NCBI GenBank assembly: GCA_947628205.1
Contig: CANQYX010000001.1
Span: 4,380 to 68,379, forward strand
Length of the DNA: 64,000 nt
From: an uncultured Clostridia bacterium
GTDB taxonomy: Bacteria > Bacillota > Clostridia > Christensenellales > UBA1242
Direction: 5' to 3'
A program made the translations under genes and the position numbers. Below, piece after piece: positions 688-17,877 of this stretch. Below the pieces are notes generated by a model. The model ran no database searches, was not told where the DNA came from, and saw nothing but the letters and a program-made list of their open reading frames with translations. How positions within the stretch are numbered: the first letter of the stretch is position 1; each line of letters starts with the position of its first letter.

Positions 688-770
688 AAATTGCGCCAAA
701 ATTTTGTAAAACACTAGGTTTAAAATTTACTTTACTTTATTTCATAAAAGTGCTATTCTTTAAATAACTT

Positions 771-1553: not shown

Positions 1554-1599
1554 AATTTAGCCAAAGCAACAAAAAAACCAACCTAAAATGGTTGATTTT

Positions 1600-2940
1600 T
1601 TATTTTGTTTGTTGCGGTTTAGTTTTACAATTGCAAAATAAAATTTGGCACACCAGTATAAGCATAAATATGTTGTTAACTTGAAAAGTGTTGTCGGTTA
1701 AACTTTCAATTAAAAACCAAATAAAAGGCAGCCATGCGGCAAATTTTGGGCGCGAGCAATTAAGCTCTTTAATCATAAGAATTGCAATTGCGCATAGTGC
1801 CACAATTCCCACCAAACCGAACCTATAAATCAGCATAACAACAAAGCTGTGGGTGTCGTAACTATGGTTTATAGCTTGTATAAAAAGTTTTGGCCCAAAC
1901 ATGCCCTGCCCAAACAGGATGGTGGCAGGCGTTTCCGCCCATTTTTTTAGATATGCCAACCAAATTTCCGATCTGCCAGTTGTAAGCGCATTTAAAAAGT
2001 TGCCATTTTCAACATCGCTAAATCGTTTAAACACGTCTAAAATTGGGCGATACGAAATTCCCAAAACCACCAGCAAAACAAGCGCAAAAAGTGCGACATA
2101 TTTAATTCGCTTTTTAAAATTTTGGCAGGTGTAAGCAACAATAAAAATTAAACTGAAAAGCGCAAGCAAACAAATGGCAGTTTTAGAAATTGTGGATAAA
2201 ATCATTGTGGCACAAATAAGGTAAATTAGCGAAAATTTTAAAATGCCCAGTTTGTTGGAAATTGCCAAAAACATGTAATATGTAAGCACAACAAAAACTC
2301 GCATGTAATAATAGTTTGGGCAGTTTGTAAACGAACAAAAGCGGTTGCCCCAAAATGGATGATATTGATAATGCGGAATTTTAAACAACGCCAACGCCAG
2401 CACGCTGGAAACAACAAGCCCAACAAACAAATAATTTATTGCCAAATGAATGTCGAACTCTTTGCGCATGGCAAACACGCAATAAATAAGCGGCAAATAA
2501 GCAAGATACGCCAGCGCACCCATATATATTGGCTTGTGCAAAAAACTTATAAGCGAGCCAAACGCAATTAGCCCAAGCATAATAAAGAAAATTTCGCAAT
2601 AAAACTTATATCTTTTTTTGGTTAGCCCAATTATGTATTTAATAATTAAAGCCAAGGTGTAACAAAACACGGTTGCCATAAGGCAGGAATACCAGCCCAA
2701 ATTGCTAAGCCCGTAGCAGTGCAAATACACAAAAAGGCAAAACCCCTGTTTAACTGGCAAAAACAAAAAGGCAAAAAACGCAACAACAGGCACGCCAATT
2801 TCAACCCACCTGTTAAACCCGCTTGCCAAATAAATTAAGGTTAACAAAAAACAACAAATAACCGTTTTGTTTGTTAAAAATTTTTTTATTAAAACAGCAA
2901 AATTCTTTTTGTTTTTTGTTGTGTTTTCCAACTTTTCCAT
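1600..2940 (-). CDS. O-antigen ligase/polymerase-like (Wzy_C-type) polytopic membrane protein
   Basis: About 10-12 hydrophobic helices. GRSEIW...LFGQG...THSFVVMLIYRFGLVG resembles the Wzy_C loop/helix signature. RBS aaggtg precedes the ATG. Confidence 0.7.
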   Translation of the reverse strand: MEKLENTTKNKKNFAVLIKKFLTNKTVICCFLLTLIYLASGFNRWVEIGVPVVAFFAFLFLPVKQGFCLFVYLHCYGLSNLGWYSCLMATVFCYTLALIIKYIIGLTKKRYKFYCEIFFIMLGLIAFGSLISFLHKPIYMGALAYLAYLPLIYCVFAMRKEFDIHLAINYLFVGLVVSSVLALALFKIPHYQYHPFWGNRFCSFTNCPNYYYMRVFVVLTYYMFLAISNKLGILKFSLIYLICATMILSTISKTAICLLALFSLIFIVAYTCQNFKKRIKYVALFALVLLVVLGISYRPILDVFKRFSDVENGNFLNALTTGRSEIWLAYLKKWAETPATILFGQGMFGPKLFIQAINHSYDTHSFVVMLIYRFGLVGIVALCAIAILMIKELNCSRPKFAAWLPFIWFLIESLTDNTFQVNNIFMLILVCQILFCNCKTKPQQTK

Positions 2941-3109
2941 AACACCTTAGTGCAAAAAAATTATTATTTTAACACGCTTATTATATCACACGCAAAGTGC
3001 ATTTTCAAACTATTTCTGCCAACAAAATTAAAAATATTTTTAATAATAAAAAACCCTTTACAAATTTGTCGTAAAATGTTATAATTATTGTAGTTTTTTA
3101 AGGTATATT

Positions 3110-3892
3110 ATGGATTCAAAAATTATAATTGCATTGCATAAGCAGTTTAACACTCCAAACAGCGAATTATATTTGCCTTTGCATGTTGGCGCGCAAACTT
3201 CAAAAGAAAATTTAAATTTTCAAAAGGATAATGAGGGCGAAAACATCTCGGATAAAAACCCATATTTTTGCGAGTTAACCGGCCTTTATTGGGCGTGGAA
3301 CAATTTAAACGCGGATGCAATTGGCCTTGTGCATTATAGGCGATATTTGCGCGGCAAAGAAAAGTTTTCGCTTGGCGGCAAAACCAAACACATTCTATCC
3401 AAGCCCGAACTGGACAATTTGCTTTTAAAAGCGGATGTGGTTTTGCCAAAGAAAAGGAATTATTTTATTGAAACGCTATATTCGCACTATGCCCACACCC
3501 TTTATGTTGAGCCACTGGAGGTAACTGGCAAAATTATTGCAGAGCATTACCCCGCCTATTTAAAAGAGTTTGAAAATCTTAAACGCCGCAGAAGTGCGCA
3601 CATGTTTAACATGTTTGTTATGAAAAGAGAGCTTTTAAACAAATATTGCACTTGGCTGTTTAGCATTTTGTTTGAGCTGGAAAAACGCATTGATGTTAGT
3701 AAATACGATAGTTTCCACGCGCGCTTTTTTGGCAGAGTTAGCGAACTGCTGTTGGATGTATATTTATTAACCAACAAAATAAAGTTTGTTGAGCAGCCAG
3801 TTGAAAACCTAGATAAAGTTAACTTTTTTAAAAAGGCATTTAGCTTTATTAAGGCAAAATTTACCAATAAAAAATATGAAAAAAGTTTTTAG
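3110..3892 (+). CDS. DUF4422-type glycosyltransferase-like protein
   Basis: YFCELTGLYWAWNN...GLVHYRRY motif block, typical of DUF4422 polysaccharide-locus proteins. Confidence 0.7.
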   Translation: MDSKIIIALHKQFNTPNSELYLPLHVGAQTSKENLNFQKDNEGENISDKNPYFCELTGLYWAWNNLNADAIGLVHYRRYLRGKEKFSLGGKTKHILSKPELDNLLLKADVVLPKKRNYFIETLYSHYAHTLYVEPLEVTGKIIAEHYPAYLKEFENLKRRRSAHMFNMFVMKRELLNKYCTWLFSILFELEKRIDVSKYDSFHARFFGRVSELLLDVYLLTNKIKFVEQPVENLDKVNFFKKAFSFIKAKFTNKKYEKSF

Positions 3893-3932
3893 CATTTATT
3901 TACCGCTAAAAAATTAAAAGGATTTTTACGCT

Positions 3933-5939
3933 ATGGATAAAAAAACAATTGCAGTTGTTGTTACTTATAATCGAAAAGAACTTTTGTTTGAATGCTTAAC
4001 CGCGCTAAAACAGCAAAATGTCGAAAATTTATCGATTTTGGTTGTGGATAATGCCAGCACGGATAACACACACGAACACATTTTAAATTTAATAGACAAT
4101 AAAAAAATTTTTTATTTTAACACTGGCTCAAACTTGGGCGGCGCGGGTGGTTTTAACTTTGGCATGAGAAAGGCAGTTGAAATGGGCTGCGATTATGTTT
4201 GGGTTATGGATGATGACTGCATTGTGCGACAAAACAGTTTGCAAGCGTTGTTAAATTTTGCCAGTTCAATAAACGACGAATTTGGCTTTTTATCCAGCGT
4301 TGTTAAATGGAAAGATGGCTCGGTTTGCAAAATGAACGTGCAAAAAACCAGTTTAAGCAAAAGGGTTGAAAATTTTGAGTTCGATCAGGAAATTAAATTG
4401 GCTTCGTTTGTTTCGCTTTTCATAAAGGCAAAAACAATTTGTGAACTGGGGCTTCCTATTAAAGATTTCTTCATTTGGGGGGATGATTGGGAATATACAA
4501 ATCGCATTTCTAAAAAATATTCTTCGTATTTGGTGGCGAATAGTGTGGTTACGCACAAATCCAACTCGAATGTGGGTGTGGACATTTCGCAAGACAGCTC
4601 TTCTAGGTTGGATAGATATTTTTACGCATATAGAAACGAGAGATATTTTTATAGAAAATCGGGCTTTAAGGGCAAATTATATCAATTTCTTAAAGTTTGT
4701 TTGCACATTAAGCGCATTTTATTTTCAAAATGCAAAAACAAAAAATCTAAACTAAACATTATGTTTAAGGGCTTAAAGGCAGGCAAAAAATTTAATCCGC
4801 CAATTGAATATGTTTACACCGAGCAACACCCACTTAAAGTTTTAGAATTTTCCGCCGAGCCATTTAATTATGCTGGGCAGGGCGCGTTTATTTTAAATAT
4901 GTTTAGAAACTTCTGCCAAAAAAACATAAAATACACCTTATGCACTCCGTTTGAAACCAGTTATCAAGACCTTATAGATTTGGCAAAATCGCGCAACGTG
5001 GAAATTTTAACTTTTAACAAAGAGCACGAATCTAAAAAGCGAAAAAAATATGTAACCGATTGTGCAAAACATGTTTTAAAAAACAACAATTTTGATGTTG
5101 TTCACGTTCACTCGGGCAGCATATTTTCGCTTTTATCGGTGGCAAAAATTGCCAAAAAGGCAGGTGCAAAAAAAGTTATTGTGCATTCACACAACACCGG
5201 CACAAAAAGTTTAAAATATAAATTAATTAAATTTGTTTCGGACAGGCAAATTTGCAAATATGCCGATGTGTTCCTTGCTTGTTCGGACGAGGCCGCGAAA
5301 TGGAAATTCCCTAAAAAAATAATTAAAAACAAAAATTACACTGTAATAAAAAATGGAATAAACACTGCCGCTTATGTCTTTAACCAAAAAACACGAGATG
5401 ATTATAGGCATCAATTTAATTTGGGTTCAGAATTAACCTTGTGTCACGTTGGCAGATTTGCCGAACAAAAAAACCATGAATTTATTGTTAAAATTGCCAA
5501 ATCACTTAAAGAAAAAAATGTCGAATTTAAATGTATTTTAGTTGGCGATGGCCCGCTAAAAAACCACATTTTAAATTGCATTGCTGCGCAAAATTTAACC
5601 AACAATTTTGTTTTCTTAGAAAAGCGAGACGATGTTGCAAAAATTTTGATGGCAGGCGACATTTTTGTGTTCCCTTCCATATTTGAAGGGTTGGGCATTG
5701 TGGCAATTGAGGCACAGGCAAGCGGATTGTTAACGCTGTGTTCAAGCGAAATTCCGCCCGAGGCATTTTTAACAAATTTGGCAGAAAGGTTAAACTTAAA
5801 CTCGGTGGATGAGTGGGTTGAAAAAATTGTTAATTTTAAACCAGTTTTAAATAGGCAAAACTATGCCAATCTCGTTGCCGAAACGGGATACGATGCAAAA
5901 CTATCGGCAACTGTTTTGGAAAAAATTTATTTAAAATAA
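3933..5939 (+). CDS. bifunctional glycosyltransferase, N-terminal GT2 fused to C-terminal GT4 (Glycos_transf_1)
   Basis: N-terminus: AVVVTYNRKELL...VVDNASTDNT...VMDDDC. C-terminus: HVGRFAEQKNH...GDGPL...FPSIFEGLGIVAIEAQASGL. Confidence 0.85.
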   Translation: MDKKTIAVVVTYNRKELLFECLTALKQQNVENLSILVVDNASTDNTHEHILNLIDNKKIFYFNTGSNLGGAGGFNFGMRKAVEMGCDYVWVMDDDCIVRQNSLQALLNFASSINDEFGFLSSVVKWKDGSVCKMNVQKTSLSKRVENFEFDQEIKLASFVSLFIKAKTICELGLPIKDFFIWGDDWEYTNRISKKYSSYLVANSVVTHKSNSNVGVDISQDSSSRLDRYFYAYRNERYFYRKSGFKGKLYQFLKVCLHIKRILFSKCKNKKSKLNIMFKGLKAGKKFNPPIEYVYTEQHPLKVLEFSAEPFNYAGQGAFILNMFRNFCQKNIKYTLCTPFETSYQDLIDLAKSRNVEILTFNKEHESKKRKKYVTDCAKHVLKNNNFDVVHVHSGSIFSLLSVAKIAKKAGAKKVIVHSHNTGTKSLKYKLIKFVSDRQICKYADVFLACSDEAAKWKFPKKIIKNKNYTVIKNGINTAAYVFNQKTRDDYRHQFNLGSELTLCHVGRFAEQKNHEFIVKIAKSLKEKNVEFKCILVGDGPLKNHILNCIAAQNLTNNFVFLEKRDDVAKILMAGDIFVFPSIFEGLGIVAIEAQASGLLTLCSSEIPPEAFLTNLAERLNLNSVDEWVEKIVNFKPVLNRQNYANLVAETGYDAKLSATVLEKIYLK

Positions 5940-5948
5940 GGAGAACAC

Positions 5949-8225
5949 ATGAAAAACTTTGTGGAAAAAAATTACAACTGGCTTATATATGTAAATTTAT
6001 TTTTCTTGTTGTTATTCCCATATCAGCAATCTATTCTTTCTAAAATCAATGGCCTGTTTTGGCTGTTTTATTATCTGTTTTTTGTGGCAACCCTTTTTGT
6101 TTTGCATTTTAACGACATCAAAAAAAATATTGGCAAAACAAAATATATCCTTGCAGTTTTGTTCATTTTGGCAATTGTAATTTTGCTTAGAAATGGCGAC
6201 ATAAAATATCATCATTTTGGCAGCCCGTTTTACTCTTTAATTATTTTGCCCATAGTGGCAATATTAATCCACACAAAAAAATGGATTAGGCCGGCACTAA
6301 ATTTAATGATTGGCTTTGGCCTGTTCCACGTGTTTTTCACTTTCCTTTTTTTGATGATGCCAAATTTTTATTCGGCACACATAATTCCGCTTTTCCCAGA
6401 TTTTTATAATGAACTAACCTATCAATTTGAACATCATCAAGCGGCGGGCTTTACTTGGCATTACAGCACAAACGCATCAATTTTGTTGTTAACAATTATT
6501 GCATTAAATGCAAAATTGATTATGACAAAAAAATCAAGCAAAAAGAAATACTTTTTAATATTCTTGTTAATTATAACCTGCGTTGCGTTGTTGTTAACCG
6601 GAAAACGCGCGCACGTGTTGTTCCTTTGCGTTGCCGAATGTGTGCTTTACATTTTGCTAAACAAACATAACCTTAAACGTGCATTTTTAAAACTTTTTGC
6701 CTTTGGTTGTTGCTTAGGGGTGGTAGTTTTGGTTTTGGCGTTTGCCTTCCCTGCGCTGGCGCAACCTTTTGTGCGCCTTTTCACTGGCTTGGCAGATGGC
6801 AGTTTGTTTGATACGCGCCGGCCAATGATTGAACTTGCAATTGAATTAATTTCTAAAAAACCAATTTTTGGCTTTGGCTGGGGAAATTATAAATATTTTT
6901 ATCACAACCAAATTGTTAATAGAGAAAGAGAATATATGGACGCCCACAACATATATTTGCAAATGCTTTCAGAAATAGGCATTGTTGGCACAATTTTCAT
7001 TTTGGCGTTGATGATTATTGTTTTTGTTGTGGCAATAAAACAATTAAACAACAACAAAGAAGATAATGGTGCGGTTGGGGCGTTTATATTAATGCATTGC
7101 TACACCTTAATGGAAGGGCTTGTTGGCAATTCGATATACGATGTTCAGCAAACTTTGCCATACATGTTGTTGATGACAATGATGCTTGCAATTTCTGTGT
7201 ATAACGATAGAGAAACTGTTAGTTTTGTGCCAAAGGCAACTAAAAAAGTGTTATCGATTAGTGTGGCGTGTTACAATTTGGGAAACATGATTGAAACCAA
7301 CATTAAATCGTTTTGCGAATCTCCAGTGGCTGACAAAATTGAACTTATTATAACCGACGATGGCAGCAAGGACAACACGCCCGAAATTGTTGAAAAATAT
7401 GTTAAAAAATATCCTAATACCATTAAGTTTATAAAAAAGAAAAATGAAGGCCCCGGCTCAACTGTTAATTCAGGCATAAAACACGCAACCGGAAAATATT
7501 TTAGGATGGTTGACGGGGATGATTGGGTTGAAACAAAAAATTTGGCAGAATATGTTGCCCTGCTTGAATCGGTCGATGTGGACATGGTTGTAAGCGATTA
7601 TGAAATTTATAACAACAGCACAAAGCAAATTATAAAAACAGAAAAATGCAATTTGCCACAAAACACAGTTTTAAATTTTAACGATGTTTATTTAAGCTTG
7701 CCAAACCAAATGCACGCAATTGCTTATAAAACCAGCATATTAAAAAATAACGTTGTTTTGGATAACTGCTTTTACACCGATGTGGAATATGTGTTGTTGC
7801 CTGTTCAGCAAGCCAAAACGTTGGTTTACTTTAACAAGCCAATTTATGTTTATCGCGTTGCGCAGGCAAATCAAAGCGTAAGCCCTGCCAGCATGATTAA
7901 AAATTTAAATCAACATGAAAAAGTGCTTGTCCGCCTTTTAACCGTTTTGGAAAAGAACAAAAAAACCTATCAGGATGGTAATTGCTTTTATATAACAAAT
8001 CGCTTGGCAGAAATGGCGAACATCAATTTGTTAACCTTGCTGATGCTTGAAACAAACGAAGAAAACAAAAAACGAATTAAAAATTTCTTTGCATATTTAA
8101 AAGCAAAAGATGCCGATGTGTATAAAATGTTTTCTAAAAGCAAAAAGGCAATGATTTTAAAATATTCCAATTTTGCGCTATACAAATTTGCGGCCAATAA
8201 AGTTAAAAATAAGGTAAAACTATGA
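5949..8225 (+). CDS. fusion of a Wzy/O-antigen-ligase-like membrane domain and a C-terminal GT2 glycosyltransferase
   Basis: N-terminal polytopic region with LTGKRAH...GFGWGNY...DAHNIYLQMLSEIGIVG. C-terminus: LSISVACYN...ITDDGSKDNT...RMVDGDDW. Confidence 0.8.
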   Translation: MKNFVEKNYNWLIYVNLFFLLLFPYQQSILSKINGLFWLFYYLFFVATLFVLHFNDIKKNIGKTKYILAVLFILAIVILLRNGDIKYHHFGSPFYSLIILPIVAILIHTKKWIRPALNLMIGFGLFHVFFTFLFLMMPNFYSAHIIPLFPDFYNELTYQFEHHQAAGFTWHYSTNASILLLTIIALNAKLIMTKKSSKKKYFLIFLLIITCVALLLTGKRAHVLFLCVAECVLYILLNKHNLKRAFLKLFAFGCCLGVVVLVLAFAFPALAQPFVRLFTGLADGSLFDTRRPMIELAIELISKKPIFGFGWGNYKYFYHNQIVNREREYMDAHNIYLQMLSEIGIVGTIFILALMIIVFVVAIKQLNNNKEDNGAVGAFILMHCYTLMEGLVGNSIYDVQQTLPYMLLMTMMLAISVYNDRETVSFVPKATKKVLSISVACYNLGNMIETNIKSFCESPVADKIELIITDDGSKDNTPEIVEKYVKKYPNTIKFIKKKNEGPGSTVNSGIKHATGKYFRMVDGDDWVETKNLAEYVALLESVDVDMVVSDYEIYNNSTKQIIKTEKCNLPQNTVLNFNDVYLSLPNQMHAIAYKTSILKNNVVLDNCFYTDVEYVLLPVQQAKTLVYFNKPIYVYRVAQANQSVSPASMIKNLNQHEKVLVRLLTVLEKNKKTYQDGNCFYITNRLAEMANINLLTLLMLETNEENKKRIKNFFAYLKAKDADVYKMFSKSKKAMILKYSNFALYKFAANKVKNKVKL

Positions 8226-9135
8226 ACGTTATAAAAAGTTTTAAAAATTTTGGTTTTAAGCACACCGCAGGAATTATTTTTAACAAAATTTTGTTTAAGT
8301 TAACCAAAAAACAAAAATTTAGAGAAAATATTTTTGCGCTAAACCTTAAATATTTAAATAGGCAGTATGCAAAATTTTTGGTTGACAACCAGCACGAACA
8401 GCTTATTGCCGAAAATGCGCCAATTTTTATTTTTTGGTGGCAAGGTTACAACGCGCAAATGCCAGAAATAGTTAAAGCGTGCATACAAGCCGCAAAAACT
8501 AACAACCCCACAAAAAAAATAATTTTTGTAACCAAAGATAATTTTAGAAAATTGGTAAACATCCCAAATTACATTTTGGAAAAATTAAACAATGGCACAA
8601 TCACAATAACCCATTTTTCAGACATTTTGCGTGCCTCTTTGCTTGTTGAGCGGGGGGGGGTATATGGATTGATGCAACATTATATTGCTTATCCCCATTA
8701 AAAGATTTAAACAAATTTTGTTTTTATACAAACAAATTGCCCGAAAGTGAAAGGTGGAATTTTAATGTTGGAAAAGGCAGGTGGAGTGCGTTTTTCTTGT
8801 GCTGTGGCAAAAACAATACAATTTTGCTAAATTTAAGGAACATCCTTTTTGAATATTGGAAAACGCACAACATTATGCTAGATTACTTTTTAATAGATTA
8901 CATAATAAAGATGTGCGAACAAAATTGCGCTAGTGCAAAGGCAATGATTGAGGCCGTGCCAATTAACAATGTGCATATCCACGATTTACAGCCAATTATG
9001 TTTGAGACATTTAATGAACAGAAATTTAATAAATTAACGAAAGACACTGGTCTATTTAAACTTAGTTATAAATTTGATAAAGAAAATTTAAAAGTTCCAA
9101 ACAGTTTTTATAAACACCTTATAAACAAAAAATAA
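8222..9135 (+). pseudogene. capsular polysaccharide synthesis (Caps_synth-like) glycosyltransferase, split by a frameshift in a G9 tract
   Basis: ORFs 8222-8701 and 8737-9135 are two halves of one protein. The downstream frame reads back as ...IWIDATLYCLSP..., which joins ...LLVERGG at the G tract. Confidence 0.75.
8652..8660 (+). repeat. G9 homopolymer at the frameshift point of the Caps_synth-like gene
   Basis: Read directly: gagcGGGGGGGGGtatatgg. G7 or G10 would give ERGG(G)IWIDAT in one frame. Confidence 0.95.
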
Positions 9136-9160
9136 ATTGCTAACAGCAATTTATTTTTTT
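9131..9160. terminator. bidirectional hairpin terminator between convergent genes
   Basis: aataaattgc-taac-agcaatttatt, flanked by A and T runs. Confidence 0.55.
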
Positions 9161-9885
9161 AAAAATTCTTTAATAAGTGCAATTCTATGTTCGCTAGATG
9201 GTTTAAAATCTTTATATTCCATTTTTAAATATTGATATTTATATGCGCCCAAATTATGCACGCTAAACACCTCTACATCCTTTGGGCAATATTTTTTAAT
9301 TAAATCTTTTATTGCCATTAAATTCTGTTTTGTATAGTTCATTTGGCTAACAATTGGAATTCTAAAAATAATTTTGGCGTTATTGGGTTTTAAATAATCT
9401 AGGTTTTTTAACACCAACTGTAAATCCCCATTTAGTTTTTCTTTAAACTCTTTAAGCGTGGCAATTTTTAAATCCACATAAAACAAATCGATGTATGGCG
9501 CAACTGTGGCTAAATCTTCGTTGTTAACATTAAGCGAAGTTTCCACGCACTGGCTTATGCCCGCGCTTTTTAAATCTTTTAAAAGCGGAATAAGGTTTTT
9601 AAGTTGAAGCAAGCACTCGCCGCCCGAATAGGTTACTCCGCCATCGGACAAATAAAAATCTTTATCCTTTAAAATAATCTCTTTAAGTTGCTCTGCCGAA
9701 TAATATTCGCCCCACGTTTTTTGATTGCCAAATTCGTCTACATAATGTTTAATTTCGGCGGTTAAATTTTCTGGGTTGCAACACCACGGACATCTTAATG
9801 GGCAACCCATGAAGAATATTGTTGTTCTAATGCCGGGGCCATCGTGTAAAGAGAACCTTTGAATGTTACTTATTAGCGCTTTCAT
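9151..9885 (-). CDS. glycyl-radical enzyme activating protein (radical SAM, PflA-like size)
   Basis: N-terminal RFSLHDGPGIRTTIFFMGCPLRCPWCCNPE (CxxxCxxC at 9781-9804). 244 aa. Its start overlaps the upstream GRE ORF by 20 nt. Confidence 0.9.
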   Translation of the reverse strand: MKALISNIQRFSLHDGPGIRTTIFFMGCPLRCPWCCNPENLTAEIKHYVDEFGNQKTWGEYYSAEQLKEIILKDKDFYLSDGGVTYSGGECLLQLKNLIPLLKDLKSAGISQCVETSLNVNNEDLATVAPYIDLFYVDLKIATLKEFKEKLNGDLQLVLKNLDYLKPNNAKIIFRIPIVSQMNYTKQNLMAIKDLIKKYCPKDVEVFSVHNLGAYKYQYLKMEYKDFKPSSEHRIALIKEFLKK

Positions 9886-12800
9886 ACATCTGTGTCCTTT
9901 TAATTAAAACATCTTTATATTCTTCGGATAAATCGTTGAAATACGCGCTAAAGCCCCACACGCGCACAATTAAATTAGGGTATTTTGTTGGGTCATTTTT
10001 GGCTTCAATCAGCTGTTTGCTGCTAACTACGTTTGCTTGCAACTGATAAAACCCTTTGTTAATGGCAACTTCAAACAATTTAACAAATTTGCTTAAATTT
10101 TCGTTTATCAATTCTGGCGTGGTGGAAAAATCTATAACATTGCCATTTAAAATTGGCTGATTATAATTCAACTTGCAAGCAAAATTAATAAGCTCGGTGT
10201 AGGCAATAGGTTTTGAACTTGAAATGTGAACATTGTAAGGTTCTTTGTCCTGCCTGCCATCCAAACTTGCGCCCACGTTTTTCGATTCGGTTATATACGC
10301 AGGTGAGCTAAACCCTGTTTTAAATTTTCTTGTGTGAGTTTTGTTATACTCTTTTAAATGGTCGCCCGCCATGTTGATAAGCGTGTTTGTAAGCGCAACA
10401 ACAAAATTGTCATCCTCGCCAAATTTTAAATTGTTGTTTTTTAATTCGTTCAAAAAGTTTGCGTCGTTCAATTTTGCGTTCATCTCTTCTAGGGTATATT
10501 TCTTTTGCGTGAACACATAATTGTTAACATTTATAAGCGCATTAACCGCATTTGAGATTCCCACGGTTAAAATTCCAAAATTGTTATATTTTGCATTTAC
10601 AAAATTATCGTTTTTGTTTTCATTAACAAAAAATGCTATGCATGGGTCGCGTTTTATAATAACAGCCTCTGCTTTAGAAATTTTTTCGTTTAGCATTTCA
10701 ATTAAATTGTCTTTAAAACCAGTTAACACTTCATCAAAAGAGGAGTATGTTGTGCGTTGCAAAGTTTTATTAAGAATTTTAACATAATCTAGCGTGTCAA
10801 AATTGTTAAATTCGGTGGCTTCGCCAAGCGGAGTAACTTCCCAGCAAGCGGCGGTGGCGTAGTTGTACGCGCCCTGCTCGTCGTAGCCAAAATCTATCAT
10901 GTTTTTAATTATAACATCATCATTTGAAAGCAGCGGCGAACCTGTGCCCTTTGCCATCATTTTGGTGGCGAACTCTAACAAATCTTTTGGCATGTTTTGG
11001 CTAACTCGCAAAAGAATTTTAGGGTCAGGCAGCGAAAGCGACACAAGTGAATCTAAAATTAAATATGTTAGGTCGTTGCAAAAATAACTTCCGTCAATTT
11101 GTTTGCCGCCCAAAATTATAATTTGCCCAGTGTCGCCCAAAATGTCCTGACTTTTATAGGCATAATTTTCGTGCAAGATTGTAAAAAATTCTTGCAACAA
11201 TTCTTTGGCTTGGGTTTTATTTATTTTTTGCTTGTCAATGTCGTTAACATAAAATTTGTCAAGCATAACATCAAGCCGCCCCAAGCCCATTAATCTATGT
11301 CTTGTTTGCCAAACAATTTGGTTTGCAAAAAGCGTGCGTTGCAAGGCATCGGCAAAACTTGTGGCTGCACTATTCTGCATTAGTTCAAAAAATTCTTTTG
11401 CTGGATTATTTTCCAGCGCGCAAAGTTTTTTGCTTTCTTGCAAAAGCAAATTTACAAAATCATTATTAGGATATTTATTATGAAGTTCGGCAAGCGAATT
11501 GTTAACAACAAGCGAATAGTCAATTGGCATGTTTGTTGGCAACATTTCATTTTTATTTTCGGTGCAATATCTCATGGTGTCAATGTGATAATAAAAATGT
11601 TTATAATTTTTTGTTGGATAATTAATGTTATAGTTTTTGTATGTAGAGTTATCTAAATATTTAAGCTTAAAATAGTATTTAATGTAGTTAGAAATAAACC
11701 CACCTTTAAGTGTTCCATTTTTAACATAACTTTTTACAACCACTGCCTTTTGATAAGGTTTTGTGTGTCGCAACAATTTTTTCAATTTTTCTTTAAACAT
11801 ATTCACTCCTTTAAAATTTAAAACTTTTTTAATCATTTGAATTAAAAATTGGTCCTTTAACACAAGCAACAGAACAAAATATATTGCTGCGCCCAAAACA
11901 ATTAACAAAACGGTGTTTAAAATGGTTGGAGCAAGGTTTAACGCGAGTGCCAAAACCACAACAAACATTACAAGGGAAGCAATTAAAAATTTCCAACAAC
12001 TTTTAAATATCTTAATAATTGAAAACTCTTTTCTTAAATAAATAACCTGATATGCCAATATGCTTGTTTCGGCAATTATTGTGGCCACCGCAGCACCAAT
12101 CGCCCCAAAGAAAGGAATTGTTATAACATTTAAAATTAAGTTGCACACTGCGCCAATAACTACAGATATTGTAAAAATTTTTTCTTTGTTTGTTGGAATT
12201 AAATATTGTATCCCAAAAACATTATTAAGGCCAATTGAAAATATTAGCACGCTTAAAATGCAAATTATATTTATGCATGGCATATAGCCCGAACCAAAAA
12301 ACCAAGGGACAAAACTTCTGGCTGTGGCCATCAACCCAAACATAATTGGCAGGCCAATAAAAAGCGAAAATTTAATAGCGGTTTCTACATTGCTGTTTAG
12401 TTTTTTATAATCCTTTTTAGCGTAATATTTGGCATTGTTTGGAATCATAACTGCGCTTAGCGAAGTTACAATTGTCATGGCAATTTTAACCACTTTTTCT
12501 GCCTGCTCGTAATAGCCAACCTGCGCATCGGTTGAAAGGAAACCAATTAAAATTTTATCTAAAAGACCATAGATTGAAATGGCAATTGTTGGGATAAAAA
12601 GTTTTAACGCGGGGAAAAAATGCCTTTTTATATTCAACTTTTTAAAATCAACTTTGGATAAATATTTAGGAATAAACAAAAACATTATTACGTTTGGCAA
12701 AATTAGTGCAAGTGCTTGAATTAGCGCGTATAGCCACAAATCGTTATAAGATTTAACAAAAACAAAAATGGATATAATTGCCAAAACTCTTGTTAAAATG

Positions 12801-13246
12801 TTTATTAGAACAAGCTTTTTAAAATCTTCATGACCCTGAAAGAGATATGCAATGTCCAACCCCGTTGCCGCGATGTTGATTAGCATAATCGTCAAAATTG
12901 TGTTGTATCTGGATAGCAACTGGCTGGCAACCAACACGCCAAACACCAATAAGCTTATGGATGTTGTTATTAATTTTAAAAAGAAAATTTCCCAAAATAT
13001 TTGCGATTGTTTTTCCTTATCGCCTGAATGGGCGGCAATTTCTCGCTGCGCATAATAAGAAAACCCAAATGCGGCAAACAATGTAAAGAATGTTACAACG
13101 GATAAAGAAAATGTATATTTCCCAATCCCCTCGGCAAGCAACACGCGCGAAACATAAGGGGTTACAATAAGCGGAATAATTAGCAAAAAAACCTGATAAA
13201 TCAGATTATAAAGGTAATTTTTTTTTACACTTTTTTGTTTTTCCAT
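9866..13246 (-). CDS. single 1126-aa ORF: N-terminal Wzx/MOP-family flippase (about 13246-11801) joined to a C-terminal 644-aa glycyl radical enzyme (11800-9866)
   Basis: N-terminus is polytopic with YLYNLIYQV...PYVSRVLLAEGIGKY, typical of Polysacc_synt flippases. C-terminus has the Gly-radical motif RVWGFSAYF (9938-9964), Cys loop TAACWEV (Cys codon 10844-10846) and GTGSPLLSNDD. An internal RBS+ATG sits at 11800. Confidence 0.8.
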   Translation of the reverse strand: MEKQKSVKKNYLYNLIYQVFLLIIPLIVTPYVSRVLLAEGIGKYTFSLSVVTFFTLFAAFGFSYYAQREIAAHSGDKEKQSQIFWEIFFLKLITTSISLLVFGVLVASQLLSRYNTILTIMLINIAATGLDIAYLFQGHEDFKKLVLINILTRVLAIISIFVFVKSYNDLWLYALIQALALILPNVIMFLFIPKYLSKVDFKKLNIKRHFFPALKLFIPTIAISIYGLLDKILIGFLSTDAQVGYYEQAEKVVKIAMTIVTSLSAVMIPNNAKYYAKKDYKKLNSNVETAIKFSLFIGLPIMFGLMATARSFVPWFFGSGYMPCINIICILSVLIFSIGLNNVFGIQYLIPTNKEKIFTISVVIGAVCNLILNVITIPFFGAIGAAVATIIAETSILAYQVIYLRKEFSIIKIFKSCWKFLIASLVMFVVVLALALNLAPTILNTVLLIVLGAAIYFVLLLVLKDQFLIQMIKKVLNFKGVNMFKEKLKKLLRHTKPYQKAVVVKSYVKNGTLKGGFISNYIKYYFKLKYLDNSTYKNYNINYPTKNYKHFYYHIDTMRYCTENKNEMLPTNMPIDYSLVVNNSLAELHNKYPNNDFVNLLLQESKKLCALENNPAKEFFELMQNSAATSFADALQRTLFANQIVWQTRHRLMGLGRLDVMLDKFYVNDIDKQKINKTQAKELLQEFFTILHENYAYKSQDILGDTGQIIILGGKQIDGSYFCNDLTYLILDSLVSLSLPDPKILLRVSQNMPKDLLEFATKMMAKGTGSPLLSNDDVIIKNMIDFGYDEQGAYNYATAACWEVTPLGEATEFNNFDTLDYVKILNKTLQRTTYSSFDEVLTGFKDNLIEMLNEKISKAEAVIIKRDPCIAFFVNENKNDNFVNAKYNNFGILTVGISNAVNALINVNNYVFTQKKYTLEEMNAKLNDANFLNELKNNNLKFGEDDNFVVALTNTLINMAGDHLKEYNKTHTRKFKTGFSSPAYITESKNVGASLDGRQDKEPYNVHISSSKPIAYTELINFACKLNYNQPILNGNVIDFSTTPELINENLSKFVKLFEVAINKGFYQLQANVVSSKQLIEAKNDPTKYPNLIVRVWGFSAYFNDLSEEYKDVLIKRTQMYESANK

Positions 13247-13428
13247 AATCCACTCTTATGTAATAAAAATATATTAATTTCTATCTAAACAACTATTTAA
13301 AAAATGTGCACATATTTCGGTGCACATTTAATATTTTTTAGTTTTAAAGCCATTTATATTGATACACCAAATACTTCAATTCTTTCAGATTAAAAAAGAA
13401 GAACACAATAGTGTTCTCCAATTTTATT

Positions 13429-13505
13429 TGGTGCACCCAGAGGGATTTGAACCCCCGGCCTTTGGTTCCGTAGACCAACGCTCTATCCAGCTGAGCTATG
13501 AGTGC
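13429..13505 (-). tRNA. tRNA-Arg (anticodon ACG), CCA encoded
   Basis: The reverse complement folds as a cloverleaf: acceptor GCACTCA/TGGGTGC, D stem GCTC/GAGC, anticodon stem TTGGT/ACCAA with loop CTACGGA, T arm GGGGG-TTCAAAT-CCCTC. Confidence 0.9.
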
Positions 13506-13578
13506 ATACAAACAACTATTGCTTGTATATTATAGCAAACATTAAACAAAAAGTAAATAGTTTTTTTAAAATTTTCAA

Positions 13579-15630
13579 TTAAATTTTAATATTAACTAAA
13601 GTTGATGGCTTCTTTTTCCTTTTTTTGGCACAAAGTTCAATAGGCAAACTACAAATTAAAACAAGCAAAAACGCACCAACGCCAATAATTGATGTTATGT
13701 TGGATATTTTTACATATTTTGGGTTAAATTCCACAACCAATTTGCCCGAATTAGAAATCTCAATTTCAATAAAGCCATTTTCGTTAGCCATGGGAGTTAA
13801 ATTTTGAACTTTGCCATCCGATGTTTCATATTTCAAGCTATACCCTTTATAGAAAAGTGTTGGCAATTCAATTTTTGCGCCGTCAGTTTCAAATTCAACC
13901 GAGTAGGATGATGCGTTTTTCTTAACAAAATTATGTGCCTTGGCTTGCCCGTTTTTTACAATAAACTCAAAAGGATTGTCTATTAAATAATTTTTTAATG
14001 TTTCGTCATAGGCAATTGTAATTTTGCTTTCGCCTTTAAAGTCAGCCAACAAAATTTTTAGGCATAAATTTTCTTCATTTGCTTCAATTTCTAAATTTTT
14101 GCATTCAATATCGGTAGAAAATTGATAAAATTTGCAATTTTTTGCCTGTTCATAAGGCAAATTAATTGTTACATAACTGTTTTTTGTATTTTTTACAATA
14201 AATGAAATTTGGTTTAAACTAAAATAATTTGCAAATTCTTTAACCTCTATGTTTGAATCTAAAATCATGCTTTCGTTTGCTCGGTGGAATATGTATTTTT
14301 GCGTGCTTTGCTTAGGAGTGTAATTCAACTTTTTGTGGGAGCCAATGCCATAATTGTCGCTCTGATTGGAAATGGCATTTTCATACATGCTTGTTTTAAC
14401 CGAGGTGTTGGCAAACCAAAAGCCGGTGTTGCTATGCGCTGAAACCGAGTTTAGCACAAACGAACAGGCAGAAAGGGTGGCAATTAAAGCAATTTGCACC
14501 GCGCAAGATTTAAACCCGTGTTTAAAAATTAAATAGGCAAGCGAAATGTAAACAAAAACTGAATTAACTGCAAACAAACGCCAAACATATTGAATTATTC
14601 CAACAAAATTTGGCAACAAAAACCACGGGAAAAAGAATGTGGACATAATAAACGACACATTTAAAAGCACAAATAAACATTTTGCATTTTTATCGTTTTC
14701 TCCGCGATAAAACCTTAACTGTTTGCCCAAACTTACAATTGCAATTAAGCTTATAACCGAACTAAATAACAGCCAAGGAAGCACAAAACACCACACGCCA
14801 TTAAAACTTAAAAATGCCGAAGTGTAACTCATGCTTTCGCTGTTAGAATTTTTTAAATTTACCACCATAGGCAGATAAAAACATGCGGTTATTGCCAAAA
14901 TTAAAACAGAAGAAATTATAAGAAAGAAAATCTTTTTTTCTTTAAACATTTCTTTAAAATGAAAGCACAGAAAAATCAAAACAAAAATTGTAGAATAAAC
15001 TGCCATGGTTAAATGGCACAAAATTGCAATTGAATAGCCCGTTGTAAACAAAAACAGAAACAGCGTTTTATTGTTAGAGATAAACAATTCGCACAGCCCC
15101 CAAAAAATGAGCGGAAGGGCAAGTGACAAAAATATTTCACTAAAAGAAAATCTAACATAAAATTGATTTAATATGTATGGTGTGCATTGATACAACAGCG
15201 CGCACACAAGAGCAAGGTTACTTTTTTTAAACAACCGCTTTATTAGGCAGAACATAACAATGCCATTTAACGAAAACAAAATAATCATTTCCAAAGCAAT
15301 TGCGCCCGTCATGTTTAGATGCAGCAAATTCATAAAAATAACAGCAATTGCGCTTGGAATGGCGGAATAAAACATAGAGTTTGCATAGCCATAATCTTGG
15401 GCGGCCAAATTGTTTATTTTAGAAAGAAAATTTCCATTTTTCCACGCATCGTTAAACGAGCGAATCATGGATAAATGATATTCAATATCGTGCCCAGAAT
15501 GAACTTTGGATGTTAAAAATGGCAACACTAACACAACTGAAAAAACAACAAAACTTAAAATGCTTAAAATTTTTGTTGCATTAAATTTCTTTTTTTCTGT
15601 TGTTAGCGATGCCAAATTTAACTCTTTCAT
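13579..15630 (-). CDS. large polytopic GT-C-like membrane protein (resembles the COG5617 'PTPS-related'/YfhO-type glycosyltransferases) with an extracytoplasmic C-terminal domain and terminal TM anchor
   Basis: N-terminal SGHDIEYHLSMIRSF...GYANSMFYSAIP block and more than 10 helices. I prefer the ATG at 15630 (RBS aaggaaaaa) over the TTG at 15654. Confidence 0.6.
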   Translation of the reverse strand: MKELNLASLTTEKKKFNATKILSILSFVVFSVVLVLPFLTSKVHSGHDIEYHLSMIRSFNDAWKNGNFLSKINNLAAQDYGYANSMFYSAIPSAIAVIFMNLLHLNMTGAIALEMIILFSLNGIVMFCLIKRLFKKSNLALVCALLYQCTPYILNQFYVRFSFSEIFLSLALPLIFWGLCELFISNNKTLFLFLFTTGYSIAILCHLTMAVYSTIFVLIFLCFHFKEMFKEKKIFFLIISSVLILAITACFYLPMVVNLKNSNSESMSYTSAFLSFNGVWCFVLPWLLFSSVISLIAIVSLGKQLRFYRGENDKNAKCLFVLLNVSFIMSTFFFPWFLLPNFVGIIQYVWRLFAVNSVFVYISLAYLIFKHGFKSCAVQIALIATLSACSFVLNSVSAHSNTGFWFANTSVKTSMYENAISNQSDNYGIGSHKKLNYTPKQSTQKYIFHRANESMILDSNIEVKEFANYFSLNQISFIVKNTKNSYVTINLPYEQAKNCKFYQFSTDIECKNLEIEANEENLCLKILLADFKGESKITIAYDETLKNYLIDNPFEFIVKNGQAKAHNFVKKNASSYSVEFETDGAKIELPTLFYKGYSLKYETSDGKVQNLTPMANENGFIEIEISNSGKLVVEFNPKYVKISNITSIIGVGAFLLVLICSLPIELCAKKRKKKPSTLVNIKI

Positions 15631-15650
15631 TTTTTCCTTTTGTAAATTTA

Positions 15651-16277
15651 TCAATTTTGGTTAGGCTGATTTTTATCTTTTTTAAAAAGCAACAACTTTT
15701 TTGAAATGTAGTTATATACAAGAACGATTAGTGTCATAACAATTTTTACAACCCATTGATTAATGTTTAAAACATCATAACCTAAATACATTCCGCCCAC
15801 ATTTAACAAAAGGCCAATAACGCTTAAAACCGTGAACACAATAAACCCTTTTGTGGATTTACTTTTGCCCTTTTCGTTAAACACAAACAAAATTGAAAGT
15901 ATATAATTAAAAATTAACCCTACTGTAAAGCCAACCGCTGTTCCAACAACCGTTGCAGCGGTCGAAGGGTTTGGCGTGTTGATGAACACATTTAAAAAAC
16001 TTTGATATATATTTTTTTGCATGAAATACATGGTAACGCCCATAAAGAACATATCAATAAGCGTTGCCAGCCCGCCAACAATTATAAAGCGCAAAATCTC
16101 GCCAAAAGTTTTGTGGTGGCTGAAAAATTCTTTTGTTTTTTCAATCAGTTTTCTTTTGGTGTTACGCGGTGTTATTAAAACGATTGCAACAAAAATTACG
16201 CCCAGCAACAAAACCGCTATTGCAAAATATTTTAAAACCTCTTTAACAACCGAATCAGATAAAAGTAAATTAGTCAT
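15651..16277 (-). CDS. GtrA-family membrane protein (polyprenyl-phosphate-sugar translocation family)
   Basis: ILRFIIVGGLATLIDMFFM... with four helices. The ATG at 16277 is preceded by AGGAGA. Confidence 0.8.
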   Translation of the reverse strand: MTNLLLSDSVVKEVLKYFAIAVLLLGVIFVAIVLITPRNTKRKLIEKTKEFFSHHKTFGEILRFIIVGGLATLIDMFFMGVTMYFMQKNIYQSFLNVFINTPNPSTAATVVGTAVGFTVGLIFNYILSILFVFNEKGKSKSTKGFIVFTVLSVIGLLLNVGGMYLGYDVLNINQWVVKIVMTLIVLVYNYISKKLLLFKKDKNQPNQN

Positions 16278-16310
16278 TTTTCTCCTGTAAATCAATAAAA
16301 TTTAAACGAA

Positions 16311-16943
16311 TTAAATTTTTTTCTTATCAACAAAATGTTTAATAATTTCATAAACGATAATAACCGCAACAATTGCCAAAAAAATCCAAAGCAAATAGTT
16401 ATTAAGCCACGGGAAAAACTCTAAAATAAGCGCAATTAAACACCCCGCAACAATATTTCCAGTTATAACACTCACGCAACTAGACAAATAATCTAGCCCC
16501 AAAAACACCGCTACGCAACTGCCTGTCCAAACCCCAGTTAAAGGAAGCGGAATTGCAACAAATATAAACACTGCAAAAAATTTTTTCCAATATTCAGCCG
16601 AAAATCTCGCAGTTTTTTGTCCGCTATCCGAAATTCCGTTAGCCTTGTTTTTTATGCGATTTTCAATTGCATTTGCCAATTTGCCAAATAGTTTTGTTCG
16701 CTTTAACCATGTTATTATAGGCACAAAAATTAGCGCAACAATAGGCACAATTAGCGAGCTGCCCAGCAAACTCCAGCCCAATGCCTGCCAATTAGAAATG
16801 GCCAAATTCCCCCACAAAGTTGAATTGGTTGCAAACGGAATTGCGCCGCGAAGTTCAACAATTGGCACCATGGCAATTAACACCGTTGCAAGCGCGATGT
16901 TGCCGTCAAACATTTTTACAAAAAGGTCCGAAATAAATTCCAT
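16311..16943 (-). CDS. COG2426 / 'small multidrug export'-like membrane protein
   Basis: VELRGAIPFA motif and a small polytopic architecture. Confidence 0.55.
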   Translation of the reverse strand: MEFISDLFVKMFDGNIALATVLIAMVPIVELRGAIPFATNSTLWGNLAISNWQALGWSLLGSSLIVPIVALIFVPIITWLKRTKLFGKLANAIENRIKNKANGISDSGQKTARFSAEYWKKFFAVFIFVAIPLPLTGVWTGSCVAVFLGLDYLSSCVSVITGNIVAGCLIALILEFFPWLNNYLLWIFLAIVAVIIVYEIIKHFVDKKKI

Positions 16944-16944
16944 A

Positions 16945-17877
16945 TTAATTTTCCACGTTCACTTTTTCTGCAACAATATAGCGCGGCCTATTTTGAACTT
17001 CTTGATATATCCTTCTAATATATATGTTGTTGAAACCCATAATAGAGAACAAAAACGCGAAGCAACAAGTTATTGTTGGGAACAACCACGCGGCAAGCGG
17101 CAAATAATGCCCGTTAATTGCCATAATAATAAATGTGGTAAAGCCAACCGTGCTAACCAAACTAAACAGAATGCCCGCAATTGCAGCAAGTGAAAGTGGG
17201 AAGGTGGACATCGAAACTATGCTGCGCCCCGCCAATTTTACAAGTTTTTTAACCGAATATTTGGTCTCTCCCGCCGCGCGCTCGTTTCTTTCAAAATCAA
17301 CAAAACCCTGCTTATAACCAACCCATGCGCTAACGCCACGCAAATATCTATCCTGTTCTGGCATAGAGTTTAGTGTGTCAACCACTTTTCTGTCCATCAA
17401 CTTGAACTCCCCAACATTTGCAGGAATGTCCAATTTAGTTATTCTCTTTAAGAAAAACAAATAAATTTTGGAAGTGATTTTTTTAAACCAGTTTTCGCCC
17501 TTCCTAACTGTTCGCCTGCCGTGGACGATGTCATACCCTTGTTTCCACTTTTCAATCATTTTAGGCACAACCTCAACCGGATCTTGTAAATCCACATCCA
17601 TACAAATAACAGCCTCGCCAACCGCATTTTCCAAACCACAAAAAATTGCGGCTTGTTGGCCAAAATTTCGCGAAAACGAAACTAATTTAATCGATTTATC
17701 AATTTCAGCAATTTTTTTAATTATTTCAACCGTTCGATCTCTACTACCATCATTAACAAAAACAACCTCATAAGGTTCGTTTAAAGATTTCATTGTCTTT
17801 GTAACTGCCTTATAAAAAATAGGAATGGCCTGTTCCTCGTTATACACGGGAACGACAATTGAATATTTAGCTTTCAT
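16945..17877 (-). CDS. GT2 polyprenyl-phosphate glycosyltransferase (GtrB/CsbB/ArnC-like)
   Basis: YSIVVPVYNEE...VVFVNDGSRDRT...DVDLQDP plus two C-terminal TM helices. RBS AGGAGA. Confidence 0.9.
   Translation of the reverse strand: MKAKYSIVVPVYNEEQAIPIFYKAVTKTMKSLNEPYEVVFVNDGSRDRTVEIIKKIAEIDKSIKLVSFSRNFGQQAAIFCGLENAVGEAVICMDVDLQDPVEVVPKMIEKWKQGYDIVHGRRTVRKGENWFKKITSKIYLFFLKRITKLDIPANVGEFKLMDRKVVDTLNSMPEQDRYLRGVSAWVGYKQGFVDFERNERAAGETKYSVKKLVKLAGRSIVSMSTFPLSLAAIAGILFSLVSTVGFTTFIIMAINGHYLPLAAWLFPTITCCFAFLFSIMGFNNIYIRRIYQEVQNRPRYIVAEKVNVEN

Follow-up and report, generated by a model that had tools for sequence, protein, structure and literature searches.

Glycyl radical enzymes (GREs) related to pyruvate formate-lyase (PFL) have been characterized as soluble enzymes of catabolism or central metabolism. 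Here, we describe a GRE that shares one open reading frame (ORF) with a Wzx/MOP polysaccharide flippase and is accompanied by a radical S-adenosylmethionine (SAM) activase. The ORF lies in a stretch of 64,000 nucleotides (the whole stretch analyzed, hereafter the window) from an uncultured Clostridia bacterium (assembly GCA_947628205.1, contig CANQYX010000001.1, positions 4,380 to 68,379). Two groups of known GREs come closest to it. Glycerol dehydratase (1R8W) and propanediol dehydratase (5I2G) have the same ten-stranded barrel (Foldseek template modeling [TM] scores of 0.75 to 0.76; E values of ~1e-31 to 1e-33), a C-terminal glycine loop, a Cys-X-Glu (CXE) loop, and a partner radical-SAM activase. 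The window GRE is ~21 to 22% identical to these enzymes and ~110 to 150 amino acids (aa) shorter, and their first ~245 residues are replaced in it by a ~137-residue segment starting with a basic extension. Its activase has no ferredoxin-like domain, and the GRE is encoded among glycan-assembly genes, not in a catabolic operon or microcompartment locus. The second group comprises PflD and YbiW (8ID0, 8YJO, and 8ID7), which cleave 1,5-anhydro-hexitol-6-phosphate and provide the best sequence match (2e-33) and the best structural match (TM score, 0.77). They resemble the window enzyme in the CXE loop and, if our proposal below holds, in acting on carbohydrate rings. They differ in being soluble, ~765 to 810 aa long, engaged in "anhydroglycolysis" catabolism, and free of any link to a flippase or glycosyltransferase (GT), and they are 21 to 22% identical to the window GRE.

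For the other two components, similar parallels can be drawn. The flippases WzxE and TuaB share with the window protein the polytopic helices, the cytoplasmic termini, and a Wzy-dependent locus with an initiating phosphoglycosyltransferase, whereas the window Wzx bears a 644-aa, predicted cytoplasmic radical enzyme at its C terminus and belongs to a clade usually found beside glf (encoding UDP-galactopyranose mutase). PflA and NrdG, like the window activase, consist of a radical-SAM domain with no auxiliary ferredoxin-like domain, although its sequence places the window activase with the PFL2/eliminase type (TIGR02494). The chemical logic that we propose has a counterpart in AprD4 and DesII, radical-SAM sugar diol dehydratase/deaminase enzymes of deoxysugar biosynthesis, in which a sugar radical forms beside a hydroxyl and vicinal elimination yields a keto-deoxy sugar. 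These enzymes are not GREs; they use the 5'-deoxyadenosyl radical directly, with one SAM consumed per turnover or regenerated. What is new in the window is the architecture, the partners, and the proposed pathway role of the GRE/activase pair. A full-text literature search found no link of a GRE to glycan assembly. A GRE review of June 2026 (PMC13450708), in which the words polysaccharide, glycan, flippase, and membrane are absent, describes no glycan-biosynthetic or membrane-tethered GRE, in agreement with the statement in an initial annotation of this DNA that no characterized GRE had been assigned to polysaccharide assembly.

Architecture of the flippase-GRE fusion and its activase

The fused ORF (positions 9866 to 13246, minus strand; 1126 aa) encodes a Wzx/MOP flippase and a compact PFL-like GRE in one frame, and its 3' end overlaps the 244-aa activase ORF by 20 nucleotides (nt) (Table 1). 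Within the N-terminal 480 residues, Pfam Polysacc_synt matched residues 8 to 270 (9.5e-33; 114.2 bits versus a cutoff of 28.2 bits), and Polysacc_synt_3 and MurJ were also matched. In the GRE part, Pfam PFL-like matched residues 624 to 981 (1.3e-53; profile positions 247 to 639 of 647) and Gly_radical matched residues 1019 to 1104 (1.3e-12; 48.7 bits versus a cutoff of 22.2 bits). The GTGSPLLSNDD block corresponds to residues 767 to 777, the Cys-loop motif TAACWEV to residues 798 to 804, and the glycine motif IVRVWGFSAYF to residues 1093 to 1103. When recomputed from the sequence, the ORF coordinates, motifs, and Gly and Cys codon positions of the initial annotation proved exact. Its description of a flippase-GRE fusion with an overlapping radical-SAM activase was likewise borne out by the ORFs and by strong profile matches to Polysacc_synt, PFL-like, Gly_radical, and, in the activase, Fer4_12 and Radical_SAM. 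A sequencing or assembly artifact was rejected as the source of the fusion because P0001, on an independent ENA contig, encodes the same fusion and because diverged fused homologues exist. The Wzx-GRE fusion was detected in at least five diverged sequences, namely, the window ORF (together with the near-identical P0001), P0002, P0004, P0241, and P0320, the last four being 36 to 55% identical.

An AlphaFold2 (AF2) model of residues 483 to 1126, built with 91 homologues, had a predicted local distance difference test (pLDDT) score of 93.2 and a predicted TM score (pTM) of 0.92. Foldseek searches of the PDB with this model returned GREs only, with TM scores of 0.72 to 0.77 over ~610 to 655 columns to more than 40 GRE chains. 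The best match was PflD (8YJO; E value, 2.9e-33; TM score, 0.77), followed by glycerol dehydratase, YbiW, propanediol dehydratase, and CutC (E values of ~1e-31 to 1e-33). The model and the Foldseek matches identify the predicted fold as the ten-stranded GRE barrel. Identity to solved GREs was ~20 to 25%, and the alignments began at GRE-domain residue ~138, corresponding to chain residue ~246. By sequence and structure together, the closest solved relatives were glycerol dehydratase and two isomerases of sugar phosphates, PflD and YbiW. The compactness pointed out in the initial annotation is a property of the whole family (~640 to 690 aa). No NCBIfam equivalog cutoff was reached by the GRE among those for HypD, CutC, HpfG/HpsG, PflD, HPAD, IAD, and PFL; the scores against cutoffs were 205/678 bits for the TIGR01774 subfamily (the best), 154/1100 for HypD, 132/1050 for CutC, and 54/994 for PFL. 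Judged from its sequence, the protein appears to be a genuine GRE of a hitherto uncharacterized clade.

The catalytic residues are strictly conserved. Among 91 family members (37 to 52% identity), A-C-W-E is invariant, as is R-x-W-G-x-S-x-Y around the glycine. The CXE loop is intact in all of these sequences, and the predicted barrel lining includes many invariant polar residues. In a HMMER alignment, Cys801 and Glu803 correspond to Cys431 and Glu433 of the GCVE loop of PflD (8id0). The CXE motif is common to all characterized GRE 1,2-eliminases and to the new GRE isomerases; in CXE enzymes, the Cys takes a hydrogen from the carbinol carbon, the Glu hydrogen-bonds or deprotonates the hydroxyl, and a vicinal C-O, C-N, or C-S bond breaks (PMC13450708). 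PFL-type chemistry was considered and rejected: the loop A-A-C-W-E holds one Cys and no adjacent Cys-Cys pair, and PFL-type acyl-CoA formation is therefore unlikely.

The activase scored 210 bits on TIGR02494 (cutoff, 174.35 bits), in two stretches that skip approximately profile positions 45 to 97, and 126 bits on the PflA profile TIGR02493 (cutoff, 232 bits). It contains seven Cys residues, including a CX3CX2C motif at C28/C32/C35. The CX2CX2CX3C motif of the ferredoxin-like insert was absent from the window activase and from the family activases (0/82; median length, 256 aa). The window activase thus looks like a PFL2/eliminase-type activase minus the insert. PFL-AE and RNR-AE are the sole two known activases composed of the radical-SAM domain only (PMC13450708); the window activase would be a third such type, here partnered with a CXE-type GRE. 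We pooled loci carrying a Wzx of the same clade with at least 4 kb of flank, 48 with and 27 without a GRE. The activase was present in 48/48 of the former and 0/27 of the latter, and it is therefore strictly dedicated to the GRE.

The Wzx domain contains 14 hydrophobic segments with K/R-rich alternate loops, and hydropathy and the positive-inside rule place both of its termini in the cytoplasm. Residues 7 to 477 are all-helical with pLDDT values of >90 in the full-length AF2 model, and the domain is 40 to 58% identical to members of a large Wzx clade. This predicted 14-helix topology agrees with the cytoplasmic location that the initial annotation had given to the GRE; with the flippase C terminus predicted to be cytoplasmic, the GRE would lie on the membrane side that holds the activase and SAM. 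In the full-length model, the flippase and the GRE are each confident, whereas residues 480 to 570 mostly have pLDDT values of <70, with four segments of <50 between residues 488 and 565. Because the linker is disordered and the overall pTM is 0.57, no flippase-GRE interface can be claimed; in the model, the two domains are tethered, and docking is not predicted.

The tether is the N-terminal extension of the GRE family itself. Across the 91 family homologues, net charge averages +12 over the first ~65 residues and -13.6 over the rest of the protein, and the positive charge is conserved in the free (unfused) forms too. This strongly basic character suggests an affinity for the anionic membrane face, which unfused members would share. 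At the junction, a Shine-Dalgarno sequence (AAAGGAG), a 5-nt spacer (TGAAT), and an ATG at Met483 are kept in frame within the fused ORF. In unfused relatives, the Wzx stop codon overlaps the GRE ATG (by 14 nt in locus L006 and by 31 nt in L001), and L006 has the same Shine-Dalgarno-ATG arrangement as the window junction. The fusion most probably arose via loss of the Wzx stop codon, and the internal start may additionally yield a free 644-aa GRE. Since fused P0004 and unfused P0005 are 70% identical, fusion and fission occur readily, and the Wzx-GRE fusion is evolutionarily labile.

Distribution and gene neighborhoods of the GRE clade

An indexed search with the GRE domain returned 674 proteins, nearly all of them free proteins of 640 to 690 aa with 37 to 53% identity, and an exhaustive HMMER pass over 1.84 billion representatives gave 295 clusters at an E value of ≤1e-30. 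Scanning a single representative genome for each species by pattern and tblastn located relatives at 241 places, some of them in isolate-labeled genomes. From these places, 80 genome-collection loci were kept, and neighborhood counts were scored with Pfam labels over 83 nonredundant loci. The 80 kept loci originate from Clostridia (Lachnospiraceae, Oscillospiraceae, and others), Bacilli, Erysipelotrichaceae, "Tenericutes," Selenomonas, Eggerthellaceae, and Aeromonadales, and they include eleven Methanobrevibacter genomes; the 83 loci span Clostridia, Bacilli, Negativicutes, Actinomycetota, Gammaproteobacteria, and Methanobrevibacter. Taxon names of gut or rumen anaerobes are attached to 80/80 genome-collection loci, which is consistent with an oxygen-sensitive enzyme. 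The nearest relatives of both the GRE and the Wzx (52 to 58% identity) are from uncultured Bacilli metagenome-assembled genomes (MAGs).

Gene neighborhoods were consistent across the family. An activase gene was found within 3 kb of the GRE in 80/83 loci, a Wzx gene within 150 nt in 51/83 and within 3 kb in 61/83, glf within 10 kb in 47/83, and a DUF4422 gene within 10 kb in 25/83. The order Wzx-GRE-activase-Glf was observed inside complete glycan loci of one Bacilli MAG and one Methanobrevibacter contig, and homologues at 31 to 34% identity keep a Glf-Wzx-GRE-activase or Wzx-GRE-activase-acyltransferase order. Loci with no neighboring Wzx were still glycan loci, with genes for GT2, GT-D, WbsX, GT4, FdtA, DegT, and a cytidylyltransferase. 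Within the sample, the GRE clade was confined to the glycan-assembly loci of anaerobes from gut and rumen. The adjacency to Wzx and GT genes that the initial annotation had seen at one locus is therefore consistent over the 83 loci, which are not catabolic operons.

Fusions of the GRE to other partners were also detected. Three proteins of ~990 aa (P0257, P0276, and P0281) are GT2-GRE fusions and P0022 is a GT8-GRE fusion, with the partner always at the N terminus of the GRE. The GT2 parts of the three former proteins are 38 to 41% identical to the GT2 domain encoded by the window ORF at positions 3933 to 5939. For these fused GT2s and their window homologue, the best NCBIfam match was the galactofuranosyltransferase GlfT1, with scores well below the cutoff. 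At L167 (positions 5077 to 14421), P0257 is encoded in an ABC-transporter-type glycan locus (ABC2_membrane and ABC_tran), followed by the activase and then by an 870-aa protein with Fer4, FrhB_FdhB_C, and polysaccharide pyruvyl transferase domains. Wzx-dependent pathways are thus not the only ones in which the GRE occurs.

The only catabolic context met was that of a more distant compact GRE, P0343 (689 aa; 29% identity). At L166 (a GCA_045659225.1 contig; positions 620 to 5853), it is accompanied by genes for a short activase, MFS sugar transporters, an aldose 1-epimerase, and a TonB-dependent receptor. P0343 looks like a representative of a sister clade that catabolizes a free sugar, and it could help to pinpoint the residues that define the glycan-locus clade. 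Some genomes carry two compact GRE/activase modules, either within one locus (two pairs in L036) or in two glycan loci of the same MAG (L031 and L035; L058 and L074). A further recurrent neighbor is a soluble protein of ~322 aa with a DED motif and no Pfam or NCBIfam family, which may have a GT-A-like fold. It is encoded at L016 (positions 12580 to 13548), at L064 (positions 8785 to 9753), and in 15 other loci, often between the activase gene and glf, and is not in the window.

Proposed role in glycan assembly and alternative explanations

We give a probability of roughly 0.6 to the reading that the compact GRE clade works in surface-glycan assembly rather than in catabolism, through radical tailoring of a sugar at the cytoplasmic face before export. 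This interpretation, which the initial annotation had put forward, is supported by the comparative sequence data. In the mechanism envisaged, the activase and SAM would generate a radical on Gly1098, which would be transferred to Cys801. The Cys801 thiyl radical would take a hydrogen from a hydroxyl-bearing sugar carbon, and Glu803 would then deprotonate the same hydroxyl. The resulting ketyl radical would expel the neighboring oxygen substituent by 1,2-dehydration or C-O cleavage, as in glycerol and propanediol dehydratases and YbiW/PflD, to give a deoxy-keto or deoxy-aldehyde sugar. The sugar would be modified at the cytoplasmic side of the membrane while linked to a nucleotide or to undecaprenyl.

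A more specific version, that the membrane-tethered GRE carries out an oxygen-sensitive sugar dehydration or deoxygenation during assembly, possibly on the 5,6-diol of a galactofuranose linked to UDP or undecaprenyl diphosphate, is tentative, and we put it at somewhat below even odds. Its weakest step is the substrate, which would be the exocyclic 5,6-diol of a galactofuranose residue, attractive because of its likeness to glycerol and 1,2-propanediol. Hints of galactofuranose include the adjacency of Wzx and glf, the DUF4422/GT111 genes that the window shares with about one in three GRE loci, and the GlfT1-like GT2. The sole characterized member of GT111 (DUF4422) transfers galactofuranose (PMC12269835).

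If this more specific version is correct, strict anaerobes of the gut and rumen, methanogenic archaea among them, would decorate their surface glycans with deoxy-keto or deoxy-aldehyde sugars by a route that matches none known. The GRE superfamily, otherwise seen as catabolic or central-metabolic, would gain a new biological role, with the first anabolic PFL-like GRE and the first case of coupling between a GRE and a membrane transporter. An archaeal PFL-like GRE would likewise receive a defined physiological role for the first time, as archaeal PFL-like GREs have no assigned function (PMC13450708). The clade combines the smallest PFL-like GRE architecture with a minimal activase, which could ease studies of activation. 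It is also a probable source of unrecognized surface sugar modifications in abundant gut and rumen anaerobes, with bearing on host immunity, phage receptors, and serotyping.

Several observations weigh against this proposal, above all against its substrate. As a reverse test, we collected 80 metagenome loci with a Wzx of the same clade (40 to 47% identity), 44 of which had at least 2.5 kb on both sides. Among these 44, a GRE was found within 2.5 kb of the Wzx in 13 (~30%), and glf was found within 2.5 kb in 25 and directly adjacent (within 300 nt) in 18. The GRE/activase pair is an accessory that the Wzx-glf module may carry or lack. Furthermore, glf was present in 6/13 of these loci with a GRE versus 19/31 of those without. 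In the pooled loci (48 with and 27 without a GRE), the respective frequencies near the Wzx were 79% and 67% for glf, 35% and 37% for DUF4422, 46% and 26% for a GlfT1-like GT2, and 31% and 4% for the ~322-aa protein. Loci that lack the GRE have glf about as often as loci that have it; galactofuranose is therefore linked to the Wzx clade and not to the GRE, and the test demoted a galactofuranose substrate from a leading claim to a weak guess. In addition, glf was not found within the 64-kb window. Clustering of the neighboring ORFs revealed no reductase, aminotransferase, or other keto- or aldehyde-processing enzyme that consistently accompanies the GRE; the recurrent neighbors were limited to generic GT2s, glf, DUF4422, an SDR epimerase, and the ~322-aa protein. 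The assignment of a substrate would draw wholly on guilt by association. In GRE decarboxylases such as HPAD, too, the Cys is followed by a Glu at the second position, in which case the CXE motif would be no proof of an eliminase. As for the tether, a search of the full-length AF2 model for a flippase-GRE interface gave no confident packing, and the internal Shine-Dalgarno-ATG and the close unfused relatives indicate that the fusion is dispensable.

The last two points bear on a competing account in which the GRE has the same pathway role but the fusion is meaningless: a stop codon was lost, the active GRE is mainly the free 644-aa protein, and the 1126-aa product is a tolerated by-product. Such an origin would fit the Shine-Dalgarno sequence and ATG kept at Met483, the overlap of the Wzx stop codon with the GRE ATG in L006 and L001, the 70% identity of P0004 and P0005, and the disordered, interface-free linker. 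However, the Wzx-GRE fusion has recurred in at least five diverged sequences, and the N-terminal fusions of the GRE to GT2 and GT8 make proximity to membrane machinery at least compatible with function and probably useful. Moreover, the basic charge of the extension is conserved even in free GREs. We regard a meaningless fusion as unlikely, although it is a serious contender.

Less probable again is that the GRE acts on a free small molecule (a sugar, diol, or 2-oxoacid) that is a precursor or substituent later activated and attached to the glycan. All characterized PFL-like GREs act on small soluble substrates, and the sister GRE P0343 resides in a free-sugar catabolic context. Against this, neighbor clustering revealed no conserved kinase, nucleotidyltransferase, or CoA-ligase co-occurring with the GRE, the fusions to GTs and flippases, like the basic, membrane-type tether, suggest that the enzyme works where the glycan is assembled, and acyl-CoA formation of the PFL type is unlikely for a GRE with no Cys-Cys pair.

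We attach very little credence to the idea that the GRE domain is an appended regulator or oxygen sensor controlling flipping or assembly, for example, by halting export when oxygen cleaves the protein at the glycyl radical. Glycyl radicals are indeed cleaved by oxygen, and the GRE is physically attached to export and assembly proteins, but the invariant polar barrel residues and the CXE loop intact in 91 sequences are typical of an enzyme that turns over a substrate, and most family members are free proteins. The June 2026 review (PMC13450708) holds no precedent for such a role. Finally, an incidental adjacency, that is, a catabolic GRE/activase pair lying beside a glycan locus, would accord with the catabolic or central-metabolic roles of all previously characterized PFL-like GREs but appears effectively refuted by the comparative data, as the glycan context is conserved in 83 loci from several bacterial phyla and an archaeal genus, down to 31% identity, and the GRE is fused several times to glycan-assembly proteins.

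Coordinates and neighboring genes in the window

The locus surrounding the fused ORF was identified with Pfam as a surface-glycan locus, with Bac_transf, two Wzy-like genes, DUF4422, GT2+GT4, Caps_synth, and GtrA with a GtrB-like GT2 (Table 1).

Table 1. Positions of the flippase-GRE fusion, its activase, and other glycan-related features in the window
Feature	Position	Strand	Basis
Initiating polyprenyl-phosphate sugar-phosphate transferase	771-1553	+	Pfam Bac_transf 1.8e-58; TIGR03025 221 bits, below cutoff
Wzy-like repeat-unit polymerase or ligase, free, on the opposite strand to the fused Wzy_C gene	1600-2940	-	Pfam Wzy_C 2.5e-9
DUF4422/GT111 glycosyltransferase	3110-3892	+	Pfam DUF4422 4.7e-88
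GT2+GT4 bifunctional glycosyltransferase, with GT2 of the GRE-fused subfamily	3933-5939	+	Pfam; GlfT1 96.9 bits versus 330-bit cutoff
Wzy_C membrane domain fused to GT2	5949-8225	+	Pfam Wzy_C 6.1e-21, Glycos_transf_2 4.6e-26
GRE-activating enzyme, 244 aa, radical-SAM domain only	9151-9885	-	TIGR02494; CX3CX2C
Compact PFL-like GRE domain (residues 483-1126 + stop codon)	9866-11800	-	Pfam, AF2, Foldseek
Gly1098 codon, radical-storage glycine in RVWGFSAYF	9953-9955	-	Family-invariant motif; Pfam Gly_radical
Cys loop C801-W802-E803 (CXE)	10838-10846	-	Cys codon 10844-10846; Glu codon 10838-10840
Basic N-terminal GRE extension (residues 483-565), flippase-barrel tether	11552-11800	-	Charge; low pLDDT; no PFL-like profile counterpart
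Internal Shine-Dalgarno + ATG (Met483), AAAGGAGTGAATATG	11798-11812	-	Read from sequence
Wzx/MOP flippase domain (residues 1-482)	11801-13246	-	Pfam Polysacc_synt, Polysacc_synt_3, MurJ; hydropathy; AF2
691-aa polytopic membrane protein with large C-terminal soluble part	13579-15654	-	No Pfam/NCBIfam match
GtrA-like protein	15651-16295	-	
Small membrane protein, Sm_multidrug_ex family	16311-16943	-	
GT2 resembling PgfS/ArnC, polyprenyl-phosphate sugar synthase type	16945-17877	-	

The Caps_synth (PF05704) glycosyltransferase gene (positions 8222 to 9135, plus strand) is split into two ORFs at positions 8222 to 8701 and 8737 to 9135. A G9 tract (positions 8652 to 8660) precedes the first stop codon, and the family motif GGIWIDATLYCL... 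runs on in the frame of the second ORF; one added G would restore a single Caps_synth ORF of ~304 aa. Either the gene is a candidate for phase variation through slipped-strand mispairing, or the homopolymer was missequenced.

Immediately upstream of the Wzx-GRE ORF, and before the gene for the 691-aa membrane protein, lies a tRNA-Arg(ACG) gene (positions 13429 to 13505, minus strand), with a promoter-like site at positions 13557 to 13529 and a terminator-like hairpin at positions 13419 to 13398. The Wzx-GRE-activase cassette thus forms a transcription unit of its own, delimited at one end by this tRNA gene and at the other by a glycosyltransferase gene in convergent orientation. Beyond the tRNA gene, a second glycosylation module occupies positions 13579 to 17877 (minus strand). 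It resembles three-component extracytoplasmic glycosylation systems, with the 691-aa protein in the place of the GT-C-type transferase.

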